The notes: generated by a model not told the origin, from the letters alone. Shown: positions 4,540 to 23,470, counted from the first letter of the stretch. The stretch is 25,637 bases of DNA from Pseudomonadota bacterium (GCA_043718025.1 JAYSWN010000141.1:1-25637), one strand, 5' to 3'. Program-made: numbers and translations.

Positions 4540-5112
4540 ATGTGGAACCTACTTTCTGCGACGCCAATGGCCTGGGTTGAGGCCGTACTAGCTGATTTTC
4601 CAGCCTTTTTAATCGATCACGCCAGTTGCGAACGCAAAGCCTCGGCGGTGGGAATGTCGTTCGTGGTGCGCTACCCCGACCGTCCTGAGTTGATGGAGCC
4701 GATGATTCACTTCGCGCGCGAAGAACTCGAACACTTTCACCAGGTCTACCGGGTGATGGCGCGCTTAGGACTACGCCCTGCCCCCGACACCGAAGATGAG
4801 TACGTGAATCGACTCATGAAGAGTGTGCGTTTCGGTCGTGAAGAGCGTTTCTTAGACCGGCTGCTTGTTTCTGGAGTGATCGAGGCCCGCGGCGCCGAAC
4901 GACTGCAATTGATTGCCGATCATCTGTTGGACCCCGACCTTCAACAGTTTTATTTACGACTGGCTCGCGCCGAAGTGTCGCATAAAAATCTTTTCGTCGA
5001 CATGGCCTTGAAATACTTCGACGAAAAAACAGTGCTGAATCGCCTCAACGAATTTTTAGTGTTGGAAGACGTGGCGATCCGCGCGGTTCCCGTGCGAGCC
5101 CTGGTTCACTAG
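4540..5112 (+). CDS. miaE: tRNA-(ms2io6A37) hydroxylase MiaE (ferritin-like di-iron enzyme)
   Basis: 'LIDHASCERKAS', 'AREELEHF', 'DRLLVSGVIEARG.ER' and 'LARAEVSH' supply the E/H di-iron ligands; length 190 aa. Confidence 0.92.
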   Translation: MWNLLSATPMAWVEAVLADFPAFLIDHASCERKASAVGMSFVVRYPDRPELMEPMIHFAREELEHFHQVYRVMARLGLRPAPDTEDEYVNRLMKSVRFGREERFLDRLLVSGVIEARGAERLQLIADHLLDPDLQQFYLRLARAEVSHKNLFVDMALKYFDEKTVLNRLNEFLVLEDVAIRAVPVRALVH

Positions 5113-6359
5113 TGAACGCCTCACCAACCGAAAAATATTTATCCACCTACGCCACACCAGAAATTGCGATCGCTTCCGAACTTCCCGCAAAAAAATGGGG
5201 CCGAGTTTTAGTCGTGCCCGCGTTAGCCGAGGCCGAACTGTTCCCCAATCTCTGGCGGTCGGTAATTACCGCAAGCCAAAACTTCTCTCTGCCGACTTTA
5301 GTTATCGTGGTGATTAACGCCAAAGACAGCGCGCCAGCGGAGGCCCACGCGGCCAATCAAAAACTGGCGCACTGGCTAAACCTTGCTCTATCTCCCACCG
5401 CTTACGAATGGGGACAGTGGGCGCAAACCCCTTTGGTAGATTTAGTAGCCATCGATCGTTATCAATCTGGCCGTCGGCTCAAAGAGAAGCAGGGTGTAGG
5501 TCAGGCACGAAAAATTGGTTGCGATCTGGCGCTTGAACTTTTTAATCGGCGGCAAATTGAAATGGTGGGCATGGATGTCACCGATGCCGATGCTGAACTT
5601 CCCGCCGATTATTGGGCGGGAGACTTTCTCCAAAGCGCGTTTGCCGGACTAAGAAAACAGCGTCCGGTCGTAGGGCTACACGCTTTTACCCACCGTGCGG
5701 TGCCCGGCCACGAACGCGCCATCCAAGAGTACGAAACCTTCTTGCAGTATTACGTCGACGGCTTAACGTACGCCGATTCTGCGTACGCGTTTCAAACCGT
5801 GGGTAGCACCTTACGCCTTGGATTTGAAGCCTACGCTGAAGTGCGCGGTTTTCCCGATCGCGAGGCCGGCGAAGATTTCTATTTGTTGAACAAGCTTGCA
5901 AAAGTGGGCGGCGTTTTTCATTCGCGAAAAACTATTTCGTTGAGCGGCCGACCCTCGTGGCGGGTTCCCTTCGGTACCGGACAGCAGGTGAATCGCCTGT
6001 CCGAACTCTATGGCGCGGGCTCGGACTATTTAGTTTACGATCCACGAGTATTTGAAAATTTGAAGAAGTGGAACCGACTATTGCGCGAGTGGGCCGAAAC
6101 CCCCGATGACGCGATATGGCGCGATCAACTGGGTGAGTTGGCATGCGTCGCCGAAACGCTGGGGGCCGCCGAATCCATGGCCGCGGCAAAGAAGGGGCGT
6201 AAGGACGCTCAATCTCGAGCCCTACATTTACAGGAATGGTTTGACGCGTTTCGCACTCTAAAGTTTGTACACCTGGTCACCGGTTCGCTTTATCCGAAGA
6301 TTCCGCTGCAAGAAGTGCAACGCCAGCGAAACCGCCAAAAAGCTCTTTTCAAGAACTAA
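5112..6359 (+). CDS. GT-A fold (GT2-like) glycosyltransferase
   Basis: 'VLVVPALAE', 'GVGQARKIG', DxD motif 'TDADAELP', 'YAEVRGF' and 'GEDFYLLNKL'. The GTG start overlaps the miaE TAG by 1 nt. Confidence 0.75.
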   Translation: MNASPTEKYLSTYATPEIAIASELPAKKWGRVLVVPALAEAELFPNLWRSVITASQNFSLPTLVIVVINAKDSAPAEAHAANQKLAHWLNLALSPTAYEWGQWAQTPLVDLVAIDRYQSGRRLKEKQGVGQARKIGCDLALELFNRRQIEMVGMDVTDADAELPADYWAGDFLQSAFAGLRKQRPVVGLHAFTHRAVPGHERAIQEYETFLQYYVDGLTYADSAYAFQTVGSTLRLGFEAYAEVRGFPDREAGEDFYLLNKLAKVGGVFHSRKTISLSGRPSWRVPFGTGQQVNRLSELYGAGSDYLVYDPRVFENLKKWNRLLREWAETPDDAIWRDQLGELACVAETLGAAESMAAAKKGRKDAQSRALHLQEWFDAFRTLKFVHLVTGSLYPKIPLQEVQRQRNRQKALFKN

Positions 6360-6381
6360 AAAAATGCCGATATAGACCCCA

Positions 6382-7185
6382 GTGAAACTCCGTTGCCTTA
6401 CCATTTTGCTTAGCCTGATCAGCGGGATCGCCGTCGCTGAACCCACCGTAGACAATTTGCCGGGTATCCGGCGCACTCCTCTCACCGTTACTTTGGAGCG
6501 AACAGAATATGAAGAGATTCGCGCGCTGAGTCGTAAGATTCGCCCCAGCTCCACCTCCGTGGTTATCGGCATTGGCCAGAGTAGCACCCCGTGGGTAACT
6601 TACTTGAGCGAACTGTCTCCGCGTTCTTCATTCAATTTTCCCCTTTCCGGTTTTCGCTCCCTTACCCCGGGCTCCCTAACCGAGGACGAACTAACGCAAC
6701 TGCACGACCATCTCGATGCGGTTTTTCCCGCCAAAGAGAAGGTGCGCAACAAAAAGCTCATTCTCACTGACTTTGCCAATCGGGGGGCGTCGTTCACTAA
6801 CCAACAACACTATCTACTGGAGTGGCTAAAACTTCGCGGCTACACCAACGAAGTGGAATGGGTGGCCGTTTGTACCGTTGAGAATGAAGGCATCGTAAAA
6901 CGCCATTTGGCAATGGCCACGCAAGCGGTGCGCTTGATTGCCGTGGACGGAATTCTCGGCGGCCGTCTCGATAGAGCAGAATACGATTTATATTCTGAAG
7001 TAGGCAGTGCCGATCGAAAGAACGAGTATCAAAAGCACGATTACGAAGGAGTGAGGCACGGCGCGTTCAAAAATCAGTTGCGCCAGTTCATAAACGACGA
7101 TCGCAGAGTCTTTTCCGATCAAACCGAACGGTATTCACTTCCCACCACTATGAATTGCCCATTCCGTTTTCTGGGCCCACTCTAA
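6382..7185 (+). CDS. Secreted hypothetical protein, possible PRTase-like fold
   Basis: Signal peptide MKLRCLTILLSLISGIAVA. 'VVIGIGQS' and 'KLILTDFANRGAS' loosely resemble the type I PRT loops. Confidence 0.6.
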   Translation: MKLRCLTILLSLISGIAVAEPTVDNLPGIRRTPLTVTLERTEYEEIRALSRKIRPSSTSVVIGIGQSSTPWVTYLSELSPRSSFNFPLSGFRSLTPGSLTEDELTQLHDHLDAVFPAKEKVRNKKLILTDFANRGASFTNQQHYLLEWLKLRGYTNEVEWVAVCTVENEGIVKRHLAMATQAVRLIAVDGILGGRLDRAEYDLYSEVGSADRKNEYQKHDYEGVRHGAFKNQLRQFINDDRRVFSDQTERYSLPTTMNCPFRFLGPL

Positions 7186-7290
7186 CTCAGTTGCGTCTTA
7201 GATGGCCGGCGACCAATTTGAAGGATAGAATTTATCCGCCGATTCAGCGTGTGCCCGGCAACTCAGCAAAATATTTACGGAGAGACTACC

Positions 7291-9345
7291 GTGACGCCAA
7301 TGCCTCCAAAAACTCGAATTTGGCTCGCTTTAGGCGTGCTGTTTCTCTGCCACACCGCTTTTTGGGTAAACCTGAGGCACCTTCATTTTTCTGATCCCGA
7401 TACGTTCATCTATTTGGGCATGGCCCGGGAAGCGGCTCAATCCGGCATTATCACCACCCTTGCGCAGGTCGAAGATTTAGGCTGGGCTAAAAAATTCGCC
7501 GATAAAAATCTGGCTTTCAATCTCATTAATGGCGCTTTCTATCGAGCCGCCGGAGATGCCGGCGTAGAGTTTTCGCTATTCCTCATGTCACTCGCAGTGG
7601 TGTTCGCGCTATTTATTGGGGTGGTTCGCTTTCTGTCTCCCTTTTGGGCAACGCTCGTGGTTTCGATGACCTACCTCAACGCGAACTTTGCCATTCGACT
7701 TTTTCTGTTGCGGCCACACGTCTGGGCCATTTTCTGCTTTGTCGGTCTGCTGGCCGCGTTGATCCACCGGGCCCCCACCGCGGCACTCATCTTTGGCGCC
7801 CTTTTTGGCTGGGGCTACCCGCTCTACCCCCTGCCCATCGCTCTACTGCTGGTGGCGGCGCTGTTTTTCAATTTTCGCCGGGTCAATCCACTCATGAAAA
7901 AAGCCTGCCAGTGGGGCCTAGCCGGGGTGGCCTTGAGCATGATCTTGCACCCAGCGTTTCCGGCAAATCTAAATTGGACTTCAAAAATTTCGCAGATTGC
8001 CGTCAACGGGATGTCGCTGAGCACGCAAGAGCTGCCGATTGAAAATGTGCCCCAGCGTTCCGACGAATTTTTAAAACGGTTCTTCCTATTTTTTCTGATG
8101 CTTTTGGGCAGTATTTCGTTCGAGGCTTTTTACCAACGCAAGTGGCAATCTGAAGAGAAACGGTTGGAGTACTACTTTCTATCCTTCATTAGCTTGGGGC
8201 TCTGGACCGTGGCTTTCTTTCAACCTCGCGCCGCCGAATACGCCATTCCCTGCACGGTCATCTTCATGGCTCTTTCGCTTTCGCGCCTTTCCGAATTCAC
8301 CGAACCTCGCCGTTTAGCCACGGCATTCGTAACGGTTTGCGTTTTGGGAAATATTTATTCGCTCATAGACTTTTACGGCAAGGGGGCCAGATTCTCGCTC
8401 AATCCCAGAGTGCCGTTGGCGGTGATGGCGGCATTACCAAAAGACGCCAAAGGTAAAAAGGTCTTCAACTGCGAGTGGGAAACCGGGGCCTTTTTATTTT
8501 ATCGCCGGCCCGAGATGCGCTTTGTCGATATTTTAGATCCAACGTTTCTTCCCAAGGCTAATCCCACCTTGGCGGCGCAACGGCAGCTGCTGTTCGAGGG
8601 AAAATTACTGCCCTATAACGTTATCCGGGGGCAATTTTCTGCCGACTATGTGGTTTGCCGTAATCCCAGTCTAACCGAACGATTAGACCGAGATCCCTTT
8701 TTCGTACGTCTGTTTCCTCCGCCACCTGATCCCATTCGCCAAGAGGTCGCCGGCTACTCGGCGGTTTACGCGGTGAATGACAAAATGATGCGCCACTTCG
8801 TAAAGTCGATAGCAACATCAACTGAAAAGAACAAACCAGAAACGAACGTCAGTCGCGATCTTAGCTCACCCCCCAACCTCACTCCCGATCCACAATCGAT
8901 GCCGTACTGGAACCTGATTGCGCTCGCGACGAAACACATTCCCGATGAAGCGACCGCTTGTTTCGAAATGACTCTGCCCTCCGAAGAGCTGGATAAATTT
9001 AAGGGTAGCGAGTGGTTGGGGATTGGCGGGGGACCGTTGGTCGAAGTGTGGTGGAACCAAACTCCGCTTTTTAAATCGGTTGATAATAATGGCGACGTTG
9101 ATTATTTGCGCGACCTGGTTGCGTTACCCCAGGCTTTGAAAACCAGCGACAAATTAGTTTTTAAAGTGTGTAGCCGGCGTGAGGACAGCTACCACGGCGC
9201 CGCCATAAGTTTTTGGATGGCAAATGAGATGGCCGCGGTGTGCGCGCAGAAGGGCTATCCCGAGCCAGCCCGCGACGCAATTAAATGGCGTTTCGGAATG
9301 CCGAAAAAACCGCACTGCCTGGGGCGTATTGCCCTCGCCAAATAA
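7291..9345 (+). CDS. Polytopic membrane protein, GT-C-like glycosyltransferase with a C-terminal soluble domain
   Basis: About 11-12 hydrophobic segments; acidic 'SDPDTFIY' in the first loop after TM1; 'LRPH' motif. The GTG at 7291 follows GGAGA (the ORF track starts at 7249). Confidence 0.65.
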   Translation: MTPMPPKTRIWLALGVLFLCHTAFWVNLRHLHFSDPDTFIYLGMAREAAQSGIITTLAQVEDLGWAKKFADKNLAFNLINGAFYRAAGDAGVEFSLFLMSLAVVFALFIGVVRFLSPFWATLVVSMTYLNANFAIRLFLLRPHVWAIFCFVGLLAALIHRAPTAALIFGALFGWGYPLYPLPIALLLVAALFFNFRRVNPLMKKACQWGLAGVALSMILHPAFPANLNWTSKISQIAVNGMSLSTQELPIENVPQRSDEFLKRFFLFFLMLLGSISFEAFYQRKWQSEEKRLEYYFLSFISLGLWTVAFFQPRAAEYAIPCTVIFMALSLSRLSEFTEPRRLATAFVTVCVLGNIYSLIDFYGKGARFSLNPRVPLAVMAALPKDAKGKKVFNCEWETGAFLFYRRPEMRFVDILDPTFLPKANPTLAAQRQLLFEGKLLPYNVIRGQFSADYVVCRNPSLTERLDRDPFFVRLFPPPPDPIRQEVAGYSAVYAVNDKMMRHFVKSIATSTEKNKPETNVSRDLSSPPNLTPDPQSMPYWNLIALATKHIPDEATACFEMTLPSEELDKFKGSEWLGIGGGPLVEVWWNQTPLFKSVDNNGDVDYLRDLVALPQALKTSDKLVFKVCSRREDSYHGAAISFWMANEMAAVCAQKGYPEPARDAIKWRFGMPKKPHCLGRIALAK

Positions 9346-9348
9346 AAG

Positions 9349-11310
9349 CTAGGATGCCAATTGCACGTTCTGTTTTTTGGGCAACCGGAGAGTGAACTTG
9401 GTACCCTTTCCCACTTCACTGGTCACGCTGATAGAGCCGTTGTGCTTTTGCACCAAGCCGTAAGCGATACTTAAACCCAGACCCGTTCCCTGCCCTACTT
9501 TCTTTGTAGTGAAAAACGGGTCAAAAATCTTTTCCACTGAATCCTTAGGAATTCCCGCACCGCTATCCTCAATTTGAATCTCAACCATCTCTCCCAGGCT
9601 TTTGGTGCGAATCCAAATGTCACCGCGCCCTGAAATGGCTTGCGCGCCGTTTGAAAGCAGGTTCATGAACACCTGGTTCATCTGCGATAAATTACATTCA
9701 ACCAGCGGTAGTTCGCCAAATTCTTCGTGTATCACTACTCGGTCTTTAAATTCGGTAACGAGTAAACGAACGGTGGTGCGCAACCCCTCGTGCAGGTCCG
9801 ATGGCCGAAAAGAAGATTCATCCATACGAGAAAATGTGCGCAACCCCAACACGATCTCCTTGGTGCGGTTGGCGCCATCGACGCAACTCTTGGTAAGATC
9901 TTCCATGTCTTTCAAGATGAAATCGAGATCAATACTCTTCTCCAGAGTATTGATGGCCAATTGGTCTTTTTCGGAAAGATTCGCTTTCAGGTCGCGATAT
10001 ATTTTTACAATTTCACGGATTTTATCAACGTAATCCGACAAATGGTGCATGTTACTGTAAATGAAGGCAATCGGGTTGTTTAGCTCGTGCGCCACTCCGG
10101 CCACGATTTGGCCGAGCGAAACCATCTTTGCCGACTGAACCAACTGGGTTTGTGCATTCTTAATTTCTTGGTTCGCGCGGTGCAGCTCTTCAAGTTTCAT
10201 CTCCAATGTGCGCTTTGCCGCCGAAACATTGCGAGCCATGTCATTAAATGCGTGCACCAAGTATTCGATTTCGTAAGTGGACTCAAGCGGAGGAATTTGC
10301 TCAATGCGGCCGGTGCGAATTCGTTTCATCGCGAGCACGAGAAGTTCAATCGGTTTCACCAGCCGATTTGAAAAAATAAAAATCAAAAGTGAGGCAATCA
10401 AAATGAGAAAGGTCGCCAAATAGATCATGGCGGTCTTTAACTTTTGGATGGTGGCATCCGCCGAAGTCATCGATATAAAAACGGCAACGTAACCCCACTT
10501 GCGGTTACGCTCAAGGGTAGAGGGGAAATCATATACGAACGCGGCGTAGCGCGCATCGCCCAACGTAATAATTGCCGGATCACGGACCTTGGCCTCCTCG
10601 GCACGTAACGCAATCGAGGAGAGTGATTTAATAATTTCTGGGGCCAGCGCAAAGCTGGCGGCCACCGAAGTTAGGTCACGAGAAAGAAAAACCACATCGA
10701 CCTGCCGACGACTGCGAAGGTCATTCAATTGCGGCGCACCGTAGATCAACTCTTGTTCAATGATGCCGTACAGACGGCGCTTATCGCGCACCAAGGCGCG
10801 GGTCACGGTGAGAATTCCCCGGTCTTCGTTGGTTAAAAAACGCTCGATCACTTCACCGCGCATTTTCACGCGCTTAAGACTCTCTTTTCCGAGGTAGGCC
10901 ACGCGCGGCGCGATTCCCGGTGGAGTTCGTCCCCAAAGGTATTTTCCGTCCGGAGAGTAGACGCGGATTAAAACATTGGGTTTAGGGGCACCGAAGGCGT
11001 CTTTAAAGGCGTCCTTAGCTTTGGAATTGAAGGCGTTGAGGATACGAGTAGAGGTGGCGTATAACTTCAAGTTGGAGAAAAGGTCGCTCTCAACCGCTTC
11101 GAGTTCACTTAATATAGCGTCGCGTTCCGACTGAGCCCGGCGAACCAGCCCTTCTTTGGTGTTGTCTTCAAAAACCTGGGTAACGTAGTAGCTGAGCAGG
11201 ATGGTGGGCAACACCGCAATGGGCACGAAATAGACGGCCAACACGGTTTTGAGAGAAAAGGTACCGGGTCGATACGAACTGAGAAATTTTTTAATTCGAT
11301 TCAGCCGCAT
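9349..11310 (-). CDS. Membrane sensor histidine kinase (TM, periplasmic sensor, TM, HAMP, HisKA, HATPase), NtrB-like
   Basis: H-box AHELNNPI, N-box [11 protein letters not shown]1 DSGAG, F-box [10 protein letters not shown]2 GTGLGL, and HAMP 'KPIELL...[12 protein letters not shown]'. Confidence 0.95.
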
Positions 11311-11315
11311 TCTAA

Positions 11316-11945
11316 TTAGAAGTACCAGTGAAACGAAGCCCCGGCGTAAGTTCCGTTGGCCAACGTCATCAGTTTAAACAACATCATCACTTCAAACGAC
11401 ACCGCAAAGCCAGAATGATGCATGAACTGCACTCCGACGCTGGGATACGCCATAAAAATGTTGTAGCCCTGCGAGAGATCATCGCTCGGACTAAGAAATT
11501 TGTTGCGTAAGATCGATGGCGAAACGTCGCGCGACGCATTGGCGCTGGCCCACCAATGGGCAAAGCCGAAGCCAACGTAGGGGCTGACCCATTCACCGAG
11601 CAGGTAATAGCGGGCGCGGATGCTGAACGAAGAGTAGTCAATCCCCGTACCCCAGCCGATCGAAGCGGCCAGCTGCGGGGTGATGTTTATATCGCCCTCA
11701 AGTCCCATGATGGCCAGGCCACCGCCGGCAGTAATCCCTAACCCAAAACGTTTTCTCATCTTCAATGACTCCAGAGCCGTCATTGGATCACCGCCCTCAC
11801 CCACCTCGGCTCCGAGCTTGGTTTTTCTTCTGGATACCGTACTTTCAGTTTCCGCAGGCGGCATCAACGGCAATTTTCCGGCGGAAGCATTGGTACACAA
11901 AATGACGAGGCAAAACTGAAGCAAAAACCGGACAGACTTCGGCAT
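11316..11945 (-). CDS. Predicted small outer-membrane beta-barrel protein
   Basis: Signal peptide ending ASA; amphipathic Gly/aromatic strands ('SIRARYYL', 'SPYVGFGF', 'VGVQFM'); C-terminal beta-signal 'ASFHWYF'. Confidence 0.7.
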   Translation of the reverse strand: MPKSVRFLLQFCLVILCTNASAGKLPLMPPAETESTVSRRKTKLGAEVGEGGDPMTALESLKMRKRFGLGITAGGGLAIMGLEGDINITPQLAASIGWGTGIDYSSFSIRARYYLLGEWVSPYVGFGFAHWWASANASRDVSPSILRNKFLSPSDDLSQGYNIFMAYPSVGVQFMHHSGFAVSFEVMMLFKLMTLANGTYAGASFHWYF

Positions 11946-12008
11946 GGCGAACCCTTTCGATTCAGGCGGTGGAACTCAAGCTTTTTTGGGGCAGTAAAAA
12001 GAAGGCGG

Positions 12009-12797
12009 CTAAAAAATTCGCGCGCGTACGCCTTCTTCTTGCAGAAACTTCTTCAGCGCAGGCTTGTCGATGTCGTTAGCCCGCTCGACCAGCTCATTTA
12101 GCCGGCGAAAAAAATCTTTGGTCTTGGCATCACTCAAGTGGTGCGAAACCGATCGAATGTCGGTGGTAATTGACGCCATGTTATCGAGAAGCGTCACCAG
12201 CTTCCTTTTTTCACTACCCTTGAGAGTTTTATTTAAGTCGGCTACCAGCGTCTCTAACGACTCTACAATCTCTTGCATCGGCTTTTCATTGCGCTCTAAA
12301 AATTCTTGGACTTTGCCAAAAACGTTGTAACCCTGCGAGAGCAGCTGATCGACGCGGGGAGGATCAATGCCGCGCGCCGTCGCCCCAGCTAGCAGCGGCT
12401 TTCCACCGTCGGTACCGGGCGTAATTTCAAGATAACGCTCACCAATAATGCCGGCCATGTTGACGTAAAATTTAGAGTCGTCTTTTAACGTCGACACTGC
12501 CTTGTTTGCCACCGAGATGACCACTTTAAGACTCGGCACGTCCCGCTCCGCGGGCAAAGCTTTGCGCTCGCTCTCGGTCAAAAAATCAATTCGTTCGACC
12601 TGCCCGACCTTCACCCCAGAAACTCGCACGGGAGAACCCACTTCAATGCCCCCCGCAAAATGGAAGAGCACGTGAATTCGCATTCCACTAAAGCCGAACG
12701 AAAAAACTCCCAACAGCCAGGCAAACCCAAGTGCAGAGGTCAAGGAGGCGACGACCAGAGCTAGGACGCCAATTTGCTTTTGCTTCACGGTACTCAT
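12009..12797 (-). CDS. mlaD: MCE/MlaD family protein (N-terminal TM, one MCE domain, helical extension)
   Basis: 'AGGIEVGSPVRVSGVKVGQVERI' and 'GIIGERYLEITPG'; lies downstream of the mlaE and mlaF genes. Confidence 0.9.
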   Translation of the reverse strand: MSTVKQKQIGVLALVVASLTSALGFAWLLGVFSFGFSGMRIHVLFHFAGGIEVGSPVRVSGVKVGQVERIDFLTESERKALPAERDVPSLKVVISVANKAVSTLKDDSKFYVNMAGIIGERYLEITPGTDGGKPLLAGATARGIDPPRVDQLLSQGYNVFGKVQEFLERNEKPMQEIVESLETLVADLNKTLKGSEKRKLVTLLDNMASITTDIRSVSHHLSDAKTKDFFRRLNELVERANDIDKPALKKFLQEEGVRARIF

Positions 12798-12865
12798 GTA
12801 AGTAGTTGTACTGGATTTACGCGTCGCGGAAAAGGGAGGCTGGTGTCTTATTTAGTATACTAGGT

Positions 12866-13540
12866 TTAGGTGTGAAGAAGGTAGGTGAGAAAGAAGTCAG
12901 AAACGATAATGCTTACCGAACTTCGCACCACAGCCTCGGTAGCGGCCTCGCCCACGCCTCGGCTGCCAAAGCGGCTTTGCAGCCCCGAGCGTGATGCCAG
13001 AAGCGCAATCAACACTCCAAATACGATGGCTTTCACACTGGCCCCCCTAAAATCACTCCAATGCGTAAAGGCAAACATTGAGTTTCCGTACTCGCCCGGC
13101 GAATACCCGATTGACCACGACGCAACGAGCCAAGAGATGGCGCAGGCTACGGTCATGGCAAGCCATGTCAAAGTAAGCGTCGAAAAAACGCAGCCCAACG
13201 AGCGCGGAATAACCAAATATTTCATTGGATCTACCCCGAATGATTTTAAAGCATCGAGCTGATCGGTGCCTTTCATCGTAGCAATCTCTGCCGCCAGGCT
13301 CGCGCCAATGCGACTGCCCAGAAGCAGACAGGTGACCACCGGGCCCAACTCCCGAAACAGAAGCTGGGTCGAGAATGCCGGCACCAGCGATTGCTGCTTC
13401 AACACCAACTTCATATGAAAGGCGAATTCCACCACTAGAATCAACGCTAAAAATGAAATGGCCAATGCCAACACCGGAACACTTTGCACGGCAAAGGTGT
13501 AACAACTGTCGATAAACGCGTGGCGAAAACGACGATTCAT
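12866..13540 (-). CDS. mlaE: MlaE family ABC permease (second paralog)
   Basis: 'RELGPVVTCLLLGSRIGASLAAEIATMK..DQLDALKSFGVDP..YLVIPR' and 'GVGEAATEAVV'. The ATG at 13540 overlaps the upstream TGA (ATGA) and has SD GGAGG. Confidence 0.92.
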   Translation of the reverse strand: MNRRFRHAFIDSCYTFAVQSVPVLALAISFLALILVVEFAFHMKLVLKQQSLVPAFSTQLLFRELGPVVTCLLLGSRIGASLAAEIATMKGTDQLDALKSFGVDPMKYLVIPRSLGCVFSTLTLTWLAMTVACAISWLVASWSIGYSPGEYGNSMFAFTHWSDFRGASVKAIVFGVLIALLASRSGLQSRFGSRGVGEAATEAVVRSSVSIIVSDFFLTYLLHT

Positions 13541-14304
13541 AGCGCAATGCCTCCCCAACCGAAAAAGTCGCACAATCGATTAAAGAAAAATGAGGTCACA
13601 TAGTCAGCGATCAAAATAAATACGAGACATTCGACCGAGGTGCGCCGCACCGACGCCCCCACGCCCGCGCTACCGCCGGTCGTGTAGTAGCCTCGATAAC
13701 AGCTCACCCAGGCAATGAGCACGCCAAAGATAAAGCACTTTACTAAAGCCATCGCGAAGCTTGGTACGGTCACAAAGCGCGGCACCTCCCGCAAGAAGTA
13801 CAATGAATTCACTCCTAGCTGGGCGGCCGAAATTCCGAGACCGCCCAACAAGGTAAAGAGTAAACCGATCATCAAAAGACAAAACGCGGACAGCACCACA
13901 GCCAAAAAGCGCGGGGCGATGAGAAACCCGATGGGGGAAATTCCCAAGCAGCGGATGGCTTCAATTTGGTCGGTAACCCGCATATTGCCCAACTCAGCCG
14001 AGGTGTAGGCACCCACTTTTCCGGCAAGTAGAAATGCAATGAGCACCGGCCCGACATTGCGCAAAGTGACGGATGTGGTCAGCCCACCTAAAAAACCCTG
14101 AGCGCCAAAATCTCTCAGCTCGAGACTCACCTGCACCGCCATAATGGCGCCCACGAAGAGACCCGTGAACACAACGGTAGCAATCGATCCCACGCCGACT
14201 CGATACATTTGATCCATTACCGCCCCCCGCGGCCATGCCTTTAACGGAAGCGCTTGAATGGTTTCGTACAGAAACTGCACTGGCCTAATGATCTTGATGG
14301 TCAT
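13537..14304 (-). CDS. mlaE: MlaE family ABC permease (first paralog)
   Basis: 'RNVGPVLIAFLLAGKVGAYTSAELGNMRVTDQIEAIRCLGISP..FLIAPR' and 'GGSAGVG'. Confidence 0.93.
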   Translation of the reverse strand: MTIKIIRPVQFLYETIQALPLKAWPRGAVMDQMYRVGVGSIATVVFTGLFVGAIMAVQVSLELRDFGAQGFLGGLTTSVTLRNVGPVLIAFLLAGKVGAYTSAELGNMRVTDQIEAIRCLGISPIGFLIAPRFLAVVLSAFCLLMIGLLFTLLGGLGISAAQLGVNSLYFLREVPRFVTVPSFAMALVKCFIFGVLIAWVSCYRGYYTTGGSAGVGASVRRTSVECLVFILIADYVTSFFFNRLCDFFGWGGIAL

Positions 14305-15047
14305 GGAGTGAGCTCAACTAATCTACTGGCCTGTATAAATTCTCGCGCGATCGGATGCGGGCAAGCGGAAAACTGCTCTGGAGTCCCTTGAAAAACAATC
14401 TCGCCCTTCTCCAGTAAAAAAAGGCGATCGGCCACGCGGAGAGCCCGTCTCAAATCATGCGAAACTACCACCGCCGTCATGCGGCGAGCGCGCGCCACCC
14501 CACGAATCAAATCGTGGATGGCATCTGATGCAATCGGGTCCAGCCCCGTCGTCGGCTCATCAAAAAGCAGATGCCGGGGGCCCACGGCCAAAGCGCGGGC
14601 TATAGCCACCCGCTTTTGAATGCCAAAACTGAGTTCGGTCGGATACTGGCTCGCGATTCGGGGCGCCAAAGCCACTTGCGCAAGCCATTCGGTGGCCAGG
14701 CCAGCGGCCGTTTCGGGGGTAAGTTTGGCAAACCCTTCAACCGCCATCATCACGTTTTCACCAACCGTCAAAAAATCGAGTAGCGCCGGAAATTGAAAGA
14801 CGATGCCGCACCGGCGAAAAAGTCGGCGATGCTCGTTCGCAGAGATGCCATTTACCAAAAATTCATCGATGAAAATCTTGCCCTCGTCGGGCTCCATGAG
14901 GCCAAGCAAGACTTTAAGCAAAACTGACTTGCCGGTGCCGCTCTTACCAAGAAAAAAGCAGATCTCACCGTCGGGTATTTCAAATGAAAAATTACCGAGC
15001 ACCTTTTTTTCGCCGAAACTTTTACTCACGTTTTCTAGGCGAATCAT
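14301..15047 (-). CDS. mlaF: MlaF family ABC ATPase (second paralog; degenerate signature LSFGI)
   Basis: Walker A GKSGTGKS, Q-loop FQ, Walker B LLFDEPT, D-loop GLDP, H-loop VSHD. Confidence 0.92.
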   Translation of the reverse strand: MIRLENVSKSFGEKKVLGNFSFEIPDGEICFFLGKSGTGKSVLLKVLLGLMEPDEGKIFIDEFLVNGISANEHRRLFRRCGIVFQFPALLDFLTVGENVMMAVEGFAKLTPETAAGLATEWLAQVALAPRIASQYPTELSFGIQKRVAIARALAVGPRHLLFDEPTTGLDPIASDAIHDLIRGVARARRMTAVVVSHDLRRALRVADRLFLLEKGEIVFQGTPEQFSACPHPIAREFIQASRLVELTP

Positions 15048-15814
15048 GGAATAGGCTCCGGCTCAATTTCGCGAAAAAAATAGCGTTTGGCGGTTCCACG
15101 GGCCTGATGCAGAACCTCTTTGACCGATCCGTGCTGGGTGATTCGCCCCCCATCAATAAACGCAATACTATCGCACAACGGCAACACCTCTTCGGGCTGA
15201 CTGCCCACCACCACCACGGTCAGCTTCTTTTTTGCACGCAGTCCAGCCACCAGATCCAAAATAGCTACCGAAGTCACCGGATCCAAGCCGGCGGTGGGCT
15301 CATCCAATATGACCAGCCGACGCGCCATTAAAAAAGCCCGCGCCACCCCCAGTCGCTTCTGCATGCCGCCGGAGAGTTCATGGGGAAACAGGCGCTCATT
15401 TCCTAATAGCCCCACCCCCTCCAATGAGGCATGTACCCGCTCGGTGAGGGCAGAACCTTTAACCCCTTCAACCTCGGCCAAGGGCAATTCAAGATTTTCG
15501 GCTACGGTCAGGGCGTCGATTAGCCCACCTTTTTGAAACGCTATTCCGAGATCCCGCGCCAATTCTCGGTGCTTTACCGTCGACATGGGATAGAGCGGCC
15601 GTCCCAAAAATTCGACCTGGCCCTGGGTTGGCGGCATCAGACCGGCCAAGACCCGCAACAAAACGCTCTTGCCCGCACCACTAGGGCCCAGCACGGCTAA
15701 GGTTTCACCGTCTTTTATAGCCAAATCAATGCCGCTAAGCACTTGGCTTGCCTGGTTCACACCGGCAAGTTGCAATGACATGGATCGGGCCTGGAGAATG
15801 ATTTCATTTAACAA
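15044..15814 (-). CDS. mlaF: MlaF family ABC ATPase (first paralog; H-loop His absent)
   Basis: Walker A GPSGAGKS, signature LSGGMQKR, Walker B VILDEPT, switch region VVVGSQ. The exact start codon is uncertain. Confidence 0.9.
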   Translation of the reverse strand: MLNEIILQARSMSLQLAGVNQASQVLSGIDLAIKDGETLAVLGPSGAGKSVLLRVLAGLMPPTQGQVEFLGRPLYPMSTVKHRELARDLGIAFQKGGLIDALTVAENLELPLAEVEGVKGSALTERVHASLEGVGLLGNERLFPHELSGGMQKRLGVARAFLMARRLVILDEPTAGLDPVTSVAILDLVAGLRAKKKLTVVVVGSQPEEVLPLCDSIAFIDGGRITQHGSVKEVLHQARGTAKRYFFREIEPEPIP

Positions 15815-15887
15815 TCTCTATGGTTTATCAGAAGTCCGGGTTGCCGCAAAGGCACACCGACCACTCCCGACCGCTGCGCATTTGGGA

Positions 15888-15916
15888 TTGAATAGGCCCG
15901 GAGCCTACGCTAACTT
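15888..15916 (+). promoter_or_regulatory. Sigma70-type promoter for the BMP/nucleoside ABC operon
   Basis: TTGAAT-N17-TAACTT upstream of SD AAGGGG (15925-15930) and a TTG start at 15938. Confidence 0.5.
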
Positions 15917-15937
15917 GCCGTGCCAAGGGGTGCTGTT

Positions 15938-16942
15938 TTGAAATTAAATCGTAGTTTGTCGGTGCTGGTTTTGCTTAGCCTCTTAACTCTGAGTTTGGCC
16001 GGCCAAGCCGCGGCACTGAAAGTGGGGCTGGTTCTCGATAAAGGGGGACGTGACGACAAGTCTTTTAACGCCGCCGCCTTCAAGGGTGCCACCGAAGCCC
16101 AAAAAAAATTAGGCATCGAACTGAAAGTGGTCGAGGCTTCTGACGATACCGCCATCGAACCCTCACTCCGAACTTTTGCCCAACGTGGCTATCCGCTCGT
16201 GATTGGCATTGGCTTTGTGCAGTCTTCGGCCATTGAAAAAGTGGCGAAGGATTTTCCAAAGACCCAATTCTTGGCCATCGATTGCGATGTAAAACTTCCC
16301 AACGTACGATCGGTAACTTTTAAGGAGCACGAGGGCTCCTTTTTGGTCGGCGCCATTGCCGCCCTTACTTCAAAGACCAATAGTGTGGGCTTTATTGGCG
16401 GCATGGACATTCCGCTTATCCGCCGCTTTCAAATGGGCTACAAAGCCGGCGCTGAAACGGTCAACGCAAAGGTAAAAGTGGTGAGTCAATACGTTGGCTC
16501 AACCTCCGATGCCTGGAAAAACCCAACCAAAGCGAAGGAGTTGGCGGCCTCACAGTACCAGAAGTCAGTAGACGTTATTTTTACCGCAGCCGGAGCTTCG
16601 GGCTTGGGCGTATTCGACGCCGCCGAAGAGCTAAAAAAATTCGCCATCGGCGTGGATAGCAATCAAAACTGGGTCAAGCCTGGACGGATTCTCACCAGCA
16701 TGGTCAAGCGGGTAGATTTTGCGGTTTACGACGCCATTGAAAAGAAAGCCACGGCTAAGCTTGAAACCGTCTCGGTGTCGCTGGGTCTTAAAGAAGATGC
16801 CGTTGATTTTGCTTTGGACGAACATAACAAGGTTCTGCTCACTCCCGAAGTGCTAAAAAAGGTAAATGATTTCAAACAAAAAATCATCAAGGGAACGCTG
16901 AAGGTTCCCGACTACTACGAAGTGCAAAAGAAAAAGTCGTGA
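15938..16942 (+). CDS. BMP family ABC substrate-binding protein (purine/nucleoside binding, PnrA-like)
   Basis: 'GGRDDKSFN', 'FKEHEGSFLVG', 'GFIGGMDIPLIRRF', 'AIGVDSNQ' and 'LTSMVKRVD'. It has an SPI-type signal (AAA) and no lipobox. Start placed at TTG 15938 (ORF track gives 15920). Confidence 0.92.
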   Translation: MKLNRSLSVLVLLSLLTLSLAGQAAALKVGLVLDKGGRDDKSFNAAAFKGATEAQKKLGIELKVVEASDDTAIEPSLRTFAQRGYPLVIGIGFVQSSAIEKVAKDFPKTQFLAIDCDVKLPNVRSVTFKEHEGSFLVGAIAALTSKTNSVGFIGGMDIPLIRRFQMGYKAGAETVNAKVKVVSQYVGSTSDAWKNPTKAKELAASQYQKSVDVIFTAAGASGLGVFDAAEELKKFAIGVDSNQNWVKPGRILTSMVKRVDFAVYDAIEKKATAKLETVSVSLGLKEDAVDFALDEHNKVLLTPEVLKKVNDFKQKIIKGTLKVPDYYEVQKKKS

Positions 16943-16943
16943 T

Positions 16944-18452
16944 GTGATGAGTGCCGTAGCCCTAGAATTTCGGGCCGTCACCAAAGCTTACGGTAGCTTC
17001 CTCGCTAACGATGGTGTCTCTTTTTCTGTCCTCCCTGGCCATTTTCACGGCATCGTCGGAGAAAATGGCGCCGGTAAATCGACGCTGATGAAAATGCTCT
17101 ACGGTTTGGAAACACCTACCTCGGGCGAGATTTTTCTAAAGGGAAAGGCCACCAGCCTGAACTCTCCCCAACAGGCAATTCTGAATGGCGTGGGAATGGT
17201 GCACCAACACTTCCATTTGGTGGGAAGCCTTCCCGCTTGGAAGAACGTGGTGCTGGGGGCCGAAAAATGGAAGTTAGACAAAGACGAATTACTGGCCCGT
17301 CTAAAAACGATTTCGGACGACGCCGGAATATCTGTACCGCTTGACGTGCCGGTGGAGGCCTTGAGCGTTGGCGAACGGCAGCAAGTGGAACTCTTAAAGC
17401 TACTGTTTCGCGACCCGAGCATTCTCATTCTAGATGAACCCACCGCGCTGCTCACCCCCCAAGAGGTCGATAAATTGCTCGAACGCCTTTCTAAGCTAAA
17501 GGCCCGGGGCAAGACCATTCTGTTCGTAACCCATAAATTGCGCGAAATTTTAAAATTTACCGATTCGGTCACCGTGCTTCGCCTCGGTAAAGTTACCCTC
17601 AACGGCGATACCGGCCAGTTTAATCAAGACTCCCTGGCCGAAGCAATTATCGGCAAAAAAAGGGTGAAACTGGTGCGGCCCGAAATTGTGCCAAGTACCG
17701 ACATCGTTTTAGAACTGAAAGAAGCGACGCTAGCCGGGGATACGAAGCGCGGCGCATGTGCCCTACTCGATAAGATTTCGCTTAAAGTTCATCGGGGTGA
17801 AATTTTGGGCATTGCCGGGGTTGAAGGCAATGGACAGCACGAACTTGTGGAGATTGTGGCCGGACTTCGTCAGCTCACCTCGGGGGACTGCCTCGTTGTG
17901 GGTAAGCATTTAAAGCGAAGTGCCGAGGGCAGCCGTAACCCTGACGTGGCCGTCATTCCACCCGATCGCCATCACGACGGATTGGTTTTAGATTTTTCGG
18001 TTTGGGAAAATGCCTTGCTCGGACACCAGCGCCAAGGCCGCTACTGCAAAAGAGGCTGGGTCGACCTAAACGAAGCTAAAGTTGGCGCCGATGAAATTAT
18101 TTGCGATTACGACGTGCGGCCAACCGACGCCACCCTGGCGATTCGGAGTCTATCGGGGGGGAACCAGCAAAAGGTAATAATGGGTCGCGAGCTCGCCCTC
18201 CACCGGAAGTTGGTGGTTGCCGCCCACCCCACACGCGGAGTCGACATCGGCGCCATGGATGCCATTCACCAAAGGTTGCTAGCGCTGAAGGAAAGCGGCG
18301 TTGGAATTCTGCTCTTATCCTCTGAGCTTGACGAAATTTTAAGATTAAGCGACCGCATCATCGTCTTTTACCGCGGTGGTATCCAAGGCGAAACCTCGTG
18401 GAAAGAGGCCTCGGAACAGAGGCTGGGCAGTTGGATGATGGGTGCCCAATGA
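16944..18452 (+). CDS. Nucleoside/sugar ABC transporter ATPase with tandem ABC domains (CUT2 type)
   Basis: GENGAGKS, 'GMVHQHF', 'LILDEPT'; the second domain has 'GIAGVEGNGQ', 'LSGGNQQK' and 'PTRGVDIG'. Confidence 0.94.
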   Translation: MMSAVALEFRAVTKAYGSFLANDGVSFSVLPGHFHGIVGENGAGKSTLMKMLYGLETPTSGEIFLKGKATSLNSPQQAILNGVGMVHQHFHLVGSLPAWKNVVLGAEKWKLDKDELLARLKTISDDAGISVPLDVPVEALSVGERQQVELLKLLFRDPSILILDEPTALLTPQEVDKLLERLSKLKARGKTILFVTHKLREILKFTDSVTVLRLGKVTLNGDTGQFNQDSLAEAIIGKKRVKLVRPEIVPSTDIVLELKEATLAGDTKRGACALLDKISLKVHRGEILGIAGVEGNGQHELVEIVAGLRQLTSGDCLVVGKHLKRSAEGSRNPDVAVIPPDRHHDGLVLDFSVWENALLGHQRQGRYCKRGWVDLNEAKVGADEIICDYDVRPTDATLAIRSLSGGNQQKVIMGRELALHRKLVVAAHPTRGVDIGAMDAIHQRLLALKESGVGILLLSSELDEILRLSDRIIVFYRGGIQGETSWKEASEQRLGSWMMGAQ

Positions 18453-20498: not shown

Positions 20499-21650
20499 TT
20501 ACTCGTCGCCGTAAGGATAACCAACCGGCGATCCGCCCGGATTGCGGTAAGAATACCAGTTGTTGTGATCGTAAAAATCAAAACCCACGTTCCATGGCGA
20601 AGGCTCCGCCCCACTCACTTGATAGGCGGCGGGGTTGGCCACCAGATCCAAAAAGTTGCTTTTGCGGGTCCACGATCGCACGTAAAGTTGAATTTCGGCG
20701 ATGATTTCTTGTGAGGTGTCTAAGCAGTAAAAATCATAAACGGGGCTGGTCGTGTAAGAACGAATTCCATCGCTTACCGTTGTAAAGGCGACCGGTTTAC
20801 CCGCCGAGCCACTAAAGTCAGCGCTATCGTAGAAGTTAGCGGCATGAACGTTTTGTGATTTGCCGAGCGTGACTGGCCCGGCCACGGAGTAGACTTCGTT
20901 CAATCCGGTACCACCGACGTAGACAATAGACATGCGCGGCCGCCCGTAATTGTCCTTGGCTTGGGTCTGCATCGCGGGGCCAGACAGACAATTCGCGGGG
21001 TTGCCACCCCAAGGAACATTATTGGTCGTCGCCACCTTGTAACTCAAAAGCGTCGTATCCCAACTACGCGAGGTCAACGTATACGTTCCGCCGCAGCAGT
21101 TTTTACCTTCGTCCACGTAGTTAAAAGCACACGGCGGAGTTTTGTACGCCGTATCTATGATGCCATCGTTGTTAGAATCAAGACCGGTGTTGTTGGTAGA
21201 GTCGGTATCGAGCTGTGCGGTCAGATTGCCCCGACCGGCCGGACGCTGAAAATAGTGGTAAGGCACGTGCACAAAATAAGAACACATCGAAGGCGGTATG
21301 TTGTACTGAATGCCTATGCCTTGAACGTAGAGATCCAACTCTTGAGCTTCGATATAGCAGGTGATCTGTTCGCCCGCGACCGCCACGCATTTTGTACCCA
21401 TGGTGCTGTTCCCCTTGTGGGAAACATACGTATATTTTGTATTCTGAAGATGCTGTACGTAAAAACCATCGGTTTCGCTCGCCACGCCAACCGGAGGATT
21501 CGGGGGGGCGGTGGGCAAACCGGGAATAGAGGGCTCTGCGGCCGGGGCCGGAAGGCCATCGATCTTTCCGCAGCCTACTAGGTACGCCTCGACGAGCAAA
21601 AATGACAATACGCCCAACATTTTTGCCCAGAACAATCTCTGTGGTTTCAT
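20499..21650 (-). CDS. Cys-rich lipoprotein of unknown function
   Basis: Lipobox LVG-C, Pro-rich linker, 8 further Cys and a DSNNDGIID motif. The ATG at 21650 has SD GAGG; an alternative GTG at 21662 overlaps the upstream stop. Confidence 0.75.
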   Translation of the reverse strand: MKPQRLFWAKMLGVLSFLLVEAYLVGCGKIDGLPAPAAEPSIPGLPTAPPNPPVGVASETDGFYVQHLQNTKYTYVSHKGNSTMGTKCVAVAGEQITCYIEAQELDLYVQGIGIQYNIPPSMCSYFVHVPYHYFQRPAGRGNLTAQLDTDSTNNTGLDSNNDGIIDTAYKTPPCAFNYVDEGKNCCGGTYTLTSRSWDTTLLSYKVATTNNVPWGGNPANCLSGPAMQTQAKDNYGRPRMSIVYVGGTGLNEVYSVAGPVTLGKSQNVHAANFYDSADFSGSAGKPVAFTTVSDGIRSYTTSPVYDFYCLDTSQEIIAEIQLYVRSWTRKSNFLDLVANPAAYQVSGAEPSPWNVGFDFYDHNNWYSYRNPGGSPVGYPYGDE

Positions 21651-21658
21651 TGCTTGCC

Positions 21659-22348
21659 TCACCAGCTAAAGCCTATGTCGTAAAGCACGGCGGGATAGAA
21701 TACGCCGATACGGTATCGAAAATCGTTGACGTGAATTTGTTCGTAGTAAAAGCCTCCACCCGAAATTCCCGTATTAAAATGTCCCCACCGCCAGCGATAT
21801 CCCACGGTGGCGCCCAATACGAATGACGGTTGGTTGCCGGCGGCACTTCCATCTAAGAACCGCACTTTAGCTGTACTGAATCCCAATCCCGCAAAAACCC
21901 AAACTCCCTTTAGATCACTTAAGGAGTAGGCAGAAACACCGAGCATGCCGCCCAGATGTTCGCTCTCCGTTCCTTCAAATTGGTATTTGAAGGTGAATCC
22001 CGTGACTCCAATCGAAACGCGTTTGGCGACAAGAAAATTTACCGAAACTTGCGGGTAGATGAGATTGGCGCCTACGTTGATGCTAATTAGGTCGCGCTCA
22101 TTCTTTTTTGGAAATCGGTAGTTAGGAATCCAGCCTTCCGGCACTTCGCGGGTTCGAGTTTTTTCGCCCTCTTCTTCCTCTTCCGGAATCAAGGGGCGCT
22201 CCACCGTGCCCACCTGCGGAGCCGGAGGTACGATACTTTCAGGGCCGGGGGCGATTTTTTTTGGGTCGGCAGGGGCTGATTTGTCAGCTCCGGCCGCAAA
22301 GGCGTGGAGTGAGAAAAGTAGCCCAATAATGAGTGTCATGGCCTTCAT
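21659..22348 (-). CDS. Predicted outer-membrane beta-barrel protein with a Pro/Glu-rich N-terminal linker
   Basis: Signal peptide ending AFA; strands 'VWVFAGLG', 'GATVGYRWRW', 'GISGGGFY'; C-terminal 'YDIGFSW'. SD AGGTG. Confidence 0.7.
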   Translation of the reverse strand: MKAMTLIIGLLFSLHAFAAGADKSAPADPKKIAPGPESIVPPAPQVGTVERPLIPEEEEEGEKTRTREVPEGWIPNYRFPKKNERDLISINVGANLIYPQVSVNFLVAKRVSIGVTGFTFKYQFEGTESEHLGGMLGVSAYSLSDLKGVWVFAGLGFSTAKVRFLDGSAAGNQPSFVLGATVGYRWRWGHFNTGISGGGFYYEQIHVNDFRYRIGVFYPAVLYDIGFSW

Positions 22349-22365
22349 CGATTCACCTACTGAAG

Positions 22366-22393
22366 GTTTCGGTAAAAGGCTTAACTTTCTTTA
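22366..22393 (-). promoter_or_regulatory. Possible sigma28-type promoter for the barrel-lipoprotein pair
   Basis: The minus strand reads TAAAG-aaagttaagcctttt-ACCGAAAC, with the same spacer length and the same 17-nt distance to the ATG as the PilZ promoter. Confidence 0.45.
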
Positions 22394-22402
22394 GAGTAGC
22401 GG

Positions 22403-23470
22403 CTACTTAACCGCGTCAACCAGGCGGGAGCGGACTTCCCCTAACATTTCAAGGGTGTGCTCAACCTCATCGGGGGTGTGTAACGCCAAGCCACAGGCGG
22501 GCGTGAGCAGCGAGTTGGTCAAAACCTGAGTACGCTGCTCAAGGGACAGGCCACTGCCGTAAAGTTTTTCTAGGAAATTTTTAGCGATGACTTCGGCGGT
22601 GAGTTCTTTGCCCTTGATTGAAGGGATCATGCCGAACGATAAGCGCCCCCCCCGATCGATAAAGGCCCCCAATTCTGGGGTCGAAAGTATCGATTCCAAA
22701 GACAAGTTCACGTCAACCGATAACACATCGACTTCCGTCAACATCAAAGCCCCCCACGCGGTATCACTGCAACAATGGATACCCACTTCCGCCCCCTCTT
22801 TGCGCAAGGTCTTTACGCAGACTCCCAATTCGCTCAGGCCCAAGGCGTGGCGAAGGTGACCGGGATTTAGTCCGTAGAGTCCGGGCTCATCAAAAAAGAA
22901 TAGAGAATTCATGCCGCGCCGTTTTGCCGCGCGAACCATGGCAATTGAACGCGCGAGCACTAAACGATAGGCCTGCGACGCCACGTCGGTCCAATCCTTG
23001 CCCCGCGAAGACCCTTTCACTCGCACCGACCATTGAGTGGTAAGCGGCCCGGCCAGTTGCATTTTACAAAACTTTAGCTGCCGTTCCTGCAACTCCCACA
23101 GAAACGGCTGGAAGCAACTATAGGAATGTGGTTTGGGTTCAAACCGCGAAAAAGCGTCTTCATCGGTGGAACGAGAAAAACTTTCGAGTAACGCCTCGTC
23201 AATTTCTCTAGCCCGAGTTGCCCAGACATCAAGGTTGAGATCCGCGCCGCCCTCGAGCGAAACCTCGAGGCCCGGCAGTCCATCGAGCGCCTGGGGAATC
23301 ATATATTCGGCAGGTTTACGAATAGGAATTTGCGGCAGGTACGGAATGGAATACCGAAATGAATACTCCAACGCCGAATCCACATTGTGGTGAGGCAAAC
23401 TTCCAATCGCCGTAGTGGGAAGTACGCTGTCCATCGTCGTAATTTTCTCTTTTTTGTCTTTTGCGTTCAC
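22403..23470 (-). CDS. Core (single-barrel) MetE-like methionine synthase family protein
   Basis: 'PTTAIGSLPH', 'PYLPQIP', 'KMQLAGPLT', 'FFDEPGL', and Zn ligands in 'GIHCCS' and 'TPACGL'. GTGA overlap with the metH stop; alternative ATG at 23434. Confidence 0.82.
   Translation of the reverse strand: MNAKDKKEKITTMDSVLPTTAIGSLPHHNVDSALEYSFRYSIPYLPQIPIRKPAEYMIPQALDGLPGLEVSLEGGADLNLDVWATRAREIDEALLESFSRSTDEDAFSRFEPKPHSYSCFQPFLWELQERQLKFCKMQLAGPLTTQWSVRVKGSSRGKDWTDVASQAYRLVLARSIAMVRAAKRRGMNSLFFFDEPGLYGLNPGHLRHALGLSELGVCVKTLRKEGAEVGIHCCSDTAWGALMLTEVDVLSVDVNLSLESILSTPELGAFIDRGGRLSFGMIPSIKGKELTAEVIAKNFLEKLYGSGLSLEQRTQVLTNSLLTPACGLALHTPDEVEHTLEMLGEVRSRLVDAVK

Follow-up and report, generated by a model that had tools for sequence, protein, structure and literature searches.

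The minus strand of a 25,637-nucleotide stretch of DNA from a Pseudomonadota bacterium (GCA_043718025.1 JAYSWN010000141.1:1-25637; hereafter the window, meaning the whole stretch that was analysed) carries an operon which, by its domain content, encodes an ATP-binding cassette (ABC) transporter belonging to the MCE (mammalian cell entry) or Mla class (type VIII): two PF02405 permeases (MlaE1 and MlaE2, or E1 and E2), an adjacent PF02470 protein (MlaD) and two MlaF-type ATPases (MlaF1 and MlaF2, or F1 and F2). The two ATPases have complementary motif defects that are conserved in relatives, the predator Bdellovibrio among them, and we propose, with a probability of roughly 0.78, that they would assemble as F1F2-E1E2 into a transporter in which, as in TM287/288 or CFTR, one site hydrolyses ATP and the other is degenerate but still binds it. 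The asymmetry is real and conserved—what is unusual is its occurrence in the MCE class, degenerate sites being already known in exporters.

According to PMC7756269, each ABC ATP site joins the Walker A and B motifs and the A-, Q- and H-loops of one subunit to the signature of its partner—the composite-site logic on which the original prediction had also relied—so both defects of an F1/F2 dimer would fall in one site. F1 has a serine at the H-loop switch position, in the same column as the F2 histidine (pairwise alignment; 92 of 233 aligned residues identical), and F2 has a degenerate signature (Table 1). Three genomes of the same genus share these states, with GSQP in F1 and LS[FI]G[VI] in F2, and the asymmetry is present in all 111 distinct pairs described below; the changes are thus neither sequencing error nor chance. 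Re-reading the sequence and the alignment reproduced the open reading frames (ORFs), motifs and coordinates of the original prediction exactly; what that prediction left out was the loss of the Walker B glutamate from most F1 orthologs (though not from the window's own F1), the difference between the two permeases and a barrel gene behind mlaD. Against the NCBIfam MlaF equivalog model, F1 and F2 score 131-133 bits, under its 441-bit cut-off.

Loci for comparison were drawn from 31 related genomes, 401 phylum genomes, a named genome collection and wider regions. An F2-like ATPase lies directly upstream of mlaE in 152 loci (117 distinct), 111 of the distinct ones having an upstream F1 in the DNA examined; the six distinct F2 proteins without a counted F1 come from three short loci (F1 is present in longer loci of the same genomes), two loci with F1 about 4 kb upstream and one at a contig edge. 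The F1 switch position holds Asn in 69 of the 111 pairs, Ser in 32, Thr in 5, Gly in 2, and Ala, Leu and His in one each. Its catalytic Walker B position is Glu in 47, Asp in 62, and Asn and Ser in one each, so that Glu is lost in 64; both Glu and His are present in no F1 and both absent in 63, the single His-bearing F1 having Asp. F1 otherwise retains the Walker A lysine (GK[ST]; 109/109 readable) and SGG (110/110 readable), and its SGGMxKRL signature helix is invariant or nearly so. Each of the 117 F2 proteins keeps the Lys, Gln, Glu and His, and the third signature position is something other than Gly in all 116 that can be read (Tyr 78, Phe 31), with the signature Ser retained in 113 and the second Gly in 109. 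The co-occurrence of H-loop loss and signature degeneracy among orthologs, which the original prediction had made its first check, is therefore borne out: 0 of 111 F1 with Glu and His, 0 of 116 readable F2 with the canonical Gly.

Three kinds of defect—in the H-loop His, the Walker B Glu and the signature Gly—all map to one composite site, and the opposite site (F2 Walker A, Q-loop, Glu and His with the F1 SGG) is essentially invariant across the 111 pairs. This agrees with the earlier proposal that both defects share one site, leaving one consensus and one degenerate site in the manner of TAP or TM287/288, and adds to it a third defect in that same site (Walker B E-to-D/N/S in 64/111 F1). A C-terminal G..GP[LIVM] tail is also unevenly distributed: it ends 78 of the 111 F1 and none of the 117 F2, the window's own F1 being without it. 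In E. coli MlaF a C-terminal extension stabilises the dimer (PMC7367683), and the F1-only tail may, by analogy, be a one-armed version of it.

Single-copy MlaF proteins were used as controls (114 single MlaF-like proteins minus one mis-sorted F2); Glu and His are kept in 113 of 113 and SGG in 107. The six without SGG are stand-alone acidobacterial MlaF-like proteins (LSTGM or MSTGM) with their other motifs intact. The earlier claim that each homodimer would be defective at both of its sites is firm for F1 but weaker for F2, whose non-Gly signature these six share. As a side observation, mlaE and mlaD were not detected within 6 kb of the acidobacterial genes (L074, L075, L078, L079, L093 and L098). 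Neighbours were listed for three of these loci, and in two of them riboflavin-synthesis and ftsY-like genes lie nearby.

A selection blind to the ATPases was made with a Pfam MlaE scan of 45 hand-picked genomes, which yielded 12 tandem mlaE pairs. Both ATPases lie upstream on the contig in 10 of the 12; F1 lacks the His in 10/10, and the F2 signature is non-Gly in 10/10 readable cases (one signature is masked, and a further locus has F2 alone). An ATPase lies next to mlaE in 18 of the 20 high-scoring single mlaE loci and is canonical in every case. Non-consensus motifs are confined to one composite site in the 111 pairs and the tandem-mlaE loci alike, the other site being consensus, as in ABC transporters with one degenerate site. 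The scan also returned eight low-scoring single mlaE loci from phylum relatives (L251-L258) in which the ATPase at the MlaF position is degenerate in Walker A, signature, Walker B and H-loop. This is a phenomenon distinct from the F1/F2 pair; several of the same genomes also have the F1F2E1E2 operon, and mlaD was not detected in the region examined (L240-L243, L245).

The heterodimer might be real and the odd site slower but still useful, the asymmetry then being one of degree and both sites contributing to transport: the Walker B Glu persists in 47 of 111 F1, the window's included, a polar Asn or Ser stands in for the His in most (101/111), F2 keeps the signature Ser (113/116 readable) and second Gly (109/116), and slow hydrolysis is described for E-to-D sites (PMC7756269). 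We consider this unlikely—Glu and His are both gone from 63 of 111 F1, and the Glu/Asp state varies among related lineages, as fits a position freed from catalytic duty.

Gene linkage, overlaps and co-inheritance fit physical pairing indirectly. In 100 of 109 pairs the end of F1 is within 30 bases of where F2 begins, ATGA overlaps join F1 to F2 and F2 to E1 in the window (E1 and E2 probably likewise), and the pairwise identities of F1 and F2 correlate (r 0.81). A different motor, composed of F2 alone or of F2 with the canonical MlaF of another locus, would leave F1 without catalysis, to regulate, assist assembly or act as a decoy instead of serving as a stable second nucleotide-binding domain. 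In its favour are the faster evolution of F1 (mean identity 45% vs 53% for F2), the distance of F1 from F2 in some loci (>200 bases in 5/109 pairs; two Bdellovibrio-like genomes have it about 4 kb upstream), the canonical MlaF present in the same genomes and the existence of orphan LSTGM ATPases. Such an arrangement sits poorly with the near-invariant SGGMxKRL helix of F1, which acts only across a dimer interface and would be needless in a free regulator; an F2F2 motor would moreover carry a non-canonical signature at both sites, and two ATPases match two permeases. We judge such a motor quite improbable.

Both F1 and F2 are under purifying selection, with a median ratio of nonsynonymous to synonymous substitution rates (dN/dS) of 0.08 for F1 and 0.06 for F2 and a maximum of 0.13 (8/13 close pairs with unsaturated dS). 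Duplicates often decay, and this genome has a second, single-copy and canonical MlaF in a complete mlaE-mlaF-mlaD locus (contig C200); neutral decay after duplication, or sequence error, might therefore be offered as an account of substitutions with no functional meaning. Yet the frames are open, the same pattern holds in 111/111 pairs across many families, dN/dS does not exceed 0.13 and the losses are confined to one composite site. Conservation and dN/dS together leave this account almost no room.

On two quick trees, F1 and F2 fall into one group each (support 56 and 90 on the tree of 144 rows; 91 and 97 on that of 55). F2 is nested within the MlaF proteins, and both stand apart from other ABC families, the placement of F1 being blurred by long branches; a single duplication giving rise to F1 and F2 has a p value of 0.136 in the approximately unbiased test (p-AU; 55 rows, sampled without six long-branch pairs). 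Most named records that carry the operon are labelled Bdellovibrionota or Oligoflexia, one being labelled Proteobacteria alone and one Leptospirales, and the F2 of Bdellovibrio bacteriovorus is CAE81166.1. A best match at or below E 2e-86 occurs in about 180 of 401 phylum genomes (hand count) and in 0 of 107 from the largest family sampled. A score threshold alone does not pick out F2, canonical MlaF in the phylum of genome G406 reaching E 2e-87, and loci were for that reason inspected directly. In that phylum 94 of 251 genomes passed and the pair is in 0 of the 15 best loci; of the 201 genomes in the phylum of G405, 34 passed E 1e-80 and, among the 20 best loci, the pair is in G405 alone. Beyond the window's own phylum the search for the pair covered these two phyla and not the Myxococcota. 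That one genome, labelled uncultured Leptospirales (L040), has a complete F1-F2-E1-E2-D operon, with TPFSI in the F2 signature region and SHN as its H-loop; its sequences nest inside both the F1 and the F2 groups, and the operon there may be a transfer or a binning error.

Table 1. Genes of the operon and ATPase motifs, in window coordinates.
Feature	Positions	Strand	Remarks
MlaF1 ABC ATPase (PF00005)	15044..15814	-	Walker A and signature intact, without switch His
F1 Walker A GPSGAGKS	15665-15688	-	
F1 signature LSGGM	15362-15376	-	canonical MlaF type
F1 Walker B ILDEP	15296-15310	-	Glu present
F1 H-loop G-S-Q	15197-15205	-	Ser codon AGT 15200-15202 in place of switch His
MlaF2 ABC ATPase	14301..15047	-	Walker A, Q-loop, Walker B Glu and His intact; signature degenerate
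F2 Walker A GKSGTGKS	14925-14948	-	
F2 signature LSFGI	14619-14633	-	degenerate; aromatic residue instead of first Gly
F2 Walker B LFDEP	14553-14567	-	
F2 H-loop SHD	14454-14462	-	His present
MlaE1 permease	13537..14304	-	PF02405, E 3e-62; nearer canonical MlaE consensus
MlaE2 permease, divergent	12866..13573	-	PF02405, E 1e-55
MlaD, 262 aa	12009..12797	-	PF02470, E 9e-16
Small outer-membrane beta-barrel, OmpA/OprF-like fold, 209 aa	11316..11945	-	PF13505 match just under cut-off

Six co-oriented genes make up the operon, mlaF1-mlaF2-mlaE1-mlaE2-mlaD and a gene for a small outer-membrane beta-barrel. The start codon of F1 is ambiguous (TTG at 15814 or a later ATG), and that of MlaE2 is likely the ATG at 13540, which overlaps the E1 stop. 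The two permeases differ, each carrying its own conserved motifs; MlaE2 has a conserved polar E-x-x-F-H-M motif at 13403-13429. MlaD consists of an N-terminal hydrophobic segment, a single MCE domain (residues 39-128) and then about 130 more residues, the last of which form a conserved QEEG[IV]R-x-x-x-F-like tail. The barrel protein is modelled with eight strands (predicted local distance difference test score, pLDDT, 86.5), its best Foldseek match being the OprF barrel (E 7.7e-6); its gene is present in 40 of 104 loci (not deduplicated), each time directly behind mlaD on the same strand, and the protein is a candidate outer-membrane partner of the transporter in part of the lineage. A promoter and terminator scan of 11000-16200 gave no excess over shuffles.

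In the mechanism that we propose, F1F2 would sit on E1E2 beneath an MlaD ring. At the consensus site, the SGG signature of F1 would meet four elements of F2, namely its Walker A, its Q-loop, the Glu of its Walker B and its His; the degenerate site would be formed by the F1 Walker A with its Lys kept, lacking the His and often having Asp for Glu, and closed by the F2 Tyr/Phe signature. This second site would hold ATP with little or no hydrolysis, binding there being in keeping with the Walker A Lys found in 109/109 readable F1. By analogy with TM287/288 and CFTR, the bound ATP would tether the dimer and one hydrolysis per cycle at the other site would drive the permease pair. Family membership points to a lipid or other hydrophobic cargo crossing the envelope—most plausibly a lipid or an amphipathic molecule that has one polar end, moving between outer and inner membrane through MlaD, with the downstream barrel taking part in some lineages—although the cargo, its direction and the role of the barrel are speculative, and we put them forward tentatively.

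Several points weigh against the heterodimeric one-site transporter. The pairing of F1 with F2 is argued from sequence comparison. The window's F1 and 46 others keep the Walker B Glu and, since E-to-D sites can still hydrolyse slowly (PMC7756269), the degenerate site may not be dead. A canonical MlaF, present in most genomes, could pair in trans; the six acidobacterial proteins with STG suggest that a non-Gly signature there need not demand a special partner; and the barrel gene is found in only 40/104 loci. As to the counts, 23 of the proteins counted had gone into the F2 profile itself, filtering by profile score removed from the control set the eight single-mlaE loci with a wholly degenerate ATPase, and kin are non-independent, so that the 111 pairs may stem from one ancestral event; the counts show long conservation, not repeated origin. 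In vivo data also fall on this side. In transposon sequencing (Tn-seq), fitness values (W) near or above 1 are conventionally taken as no defect. The B. bacteriovorus 109J genes EP01_RS11310-11335, which match the operon by annotation and order (hypothetical, substrate-binding, two permeases, two ATPases and after these sucC, which also neighbours the operon in the loci survey), have W of 0.95-2.1 under four prey conditions, within the range of many neighbours (PMC6561027). No role in predation is shown by these values, and the operon looks dispensable for laboratory predation.

The closest relatives by architecture are the MlaFEDB complexes of E. coli, A. baumannii and P. aeruginosa (PDB 6xbd, 7d06 and 7ch8 among the matches), which likewise have an MlaE-family permease and an MlaD with a single MCE domain; the ATPases here group with MlaF, and F1 has the Mla-type SGGM signature. 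MlaFEDB, however, has one MlaE and a homodimeric MlaF—in E. coli with two canonical sites and the signature LSGGM (PMC7367683)—whereas the present operon has two ATPases with complementary defects, neither bearing the full motif set, and two permeases. Compared with the MlaFEDB-MlaC-MlaA pathway, its MlaD is longer (262 aa) and mlaB, mlaC and mlaA are all missing from the operon (no genome-wide search was made for MlaB); one MlaC lies on another contig of this genome, and MlaA was not found in the genome, which is 92% complete. Mycobacterial Mce1 shares the use of heterodimeric MlaE-type permeases, YrbE1A/YrbE1B, proposed to suit asymmetric substrates (bioRxiv 10.1101/2022.12.08.519548), but employs a shared MceG homodimer and six different MCE proteins in its ring, where this operon encodes unlike ATPases and one MCE gene. 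The statement in the original prediction that E. coli MlaF and mycobacterial MceG act as homodimers agrees with both sources. The Veillonella parvula MlaEFD trans-envelope bridge is, as described in PMC10665443, a minimal MCE system without MlaA/B/C and with an extended MlaD; it has one MlaE, one MlaF and a 419-aa MlaD, as against the 262-aa MlaD and, in part of the lineage, the separate barrel gene found here.

In its motifs the pair resembles TM287/288, TAP (ABCB2/B3), MRP1 and CFTR, where one composite site bears this set of changes too. In degenerate sites as described, one subunit has an altered signature and the other an E-to-D change in Walker B as well as H-loop changes (PMC7756269, PMC3971661), and the dead site of CFTR, with Ser605 at the H-loop His and LSHGH (PMC4380215), is closely like the Ser and LSFGI of the window. 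Those proteins have an exporter fold with fused membrane and nucleotide-binding domains, unlike the free ATPases of about 250 aa on MlaE-fold permeases found here; because membrane folds and domain fusion differ, the shared pattern would be convergent. The asymmetry had been called unusual for an MCE system, which holds within the type VIII class, one-site asymmetry being common among ABC transporters generally. A precedent among importers lies in the same genome: on contig C91 (L312:2210-3696), an amino-acid importer of the LivF/LivG type has the same complementary degeneracy in free heterodimeric ATPases, with LSYGD in the LivG-like and VEQN at the H-loop of the LivF-like protein. The tree places it apart from the MlaF group, in a different ABC subfamily, and it has other permeases and a binding protein. 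No description of complementary LivFG degeneracy was found in the literature searched, nor one of a two-ATPase asymmetric MCE system; that search left subscription journals mostly outside its coverage, together with the supplements of Mla phylogenomic studies, so a brief earlier mention is possible.

Fused MlaF-MlaF proteins of about 550 aa (P0151, P0153-P0155 and P0301-P0419; loci L302-L311) came to light as well and make up a family of their own, its few named matches being mostly Myxococcota. Among the best 120 listed, domain 1 has SGGM in 120/120, the third signature position of domain 2 is non-Gly in 118/120 (Asn 69, Ala 40), and neither domain has lost the Walker B Glu or the His; this is a second, milder asymmetry of independent origin. 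That the fused proteins are F1-F2 fusions was ruled out by their own tree group and by the Glu and His in both halves. Detection of mlaE beside the fused gene succeeded in 1/10 loci, and a single-sequence fold of P0153 had a pLDDT of 40.6, too low for use. A broader scenario, which we think improbable as a whole, is that a fully asymmetric F1F2-E1E2-D6 transporter, with an outer-membrane barrel of its own, originated early in Bdellovibrionota and came by convergence to the one-site motor of CFTR and TM287/288; using one ATP per cycle and a lopsided E1/E2 pocket, it would take up one particular amphipathic lipid, for example a lyso-lipid or a fatty acid released from prey membranes, and Myxococcota, a second predatory lineage, would independently have evolved an asymmetric fused MlaF-MlaF motor.

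The surroundings of the operon may be noted briefly. A HAMP-domain histidine kinase lies behind the barrel gene (9349-11310, -) and is linked to the operon in 9/104 loci. Six ORFs of 229-698 aa at 5112-9345 (+) and 20499-23470 (-) have no Pfam match; the ORF at 7249-9345 resembles a multi-pass membrane protein. An adjoining nucleoside-type ABC importer has a fused two-domain ATPase (16944-18452, +) whose motifs also seem asymmetric, with LSVGE in domain 1 and GVEGNGQ, AAHPT and LSSEL in domain 2. RbsA/MglA-type ATPases have asymmetric motifs of the same sort.

Structures of MlaFEDB and Mce1 display a symmetric ATPase homodimer (PMC7367683, bioRxiv 10.1101/2022.12.08.519548); how ATP hydrolysis is coupled to lipid movement in the MCE class, and whether both sites need to fire, is unsettled. 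Interest in the present operon is limited by the familiarity of degenerate sites elsewhere and by Tn-seq data without a predation phenotype. If the one-site heterodimer is correct, one hydrolysis per cycle would suffice for the MlaE fold, the degenerate-site design would extend to the MCE class by convergence, and each site and each permease could be mutated separately, unlike in a homodimer—a proposal that is directly testable, since the operon occurs in the harmless and genetically tractable B. bacteriovorus.

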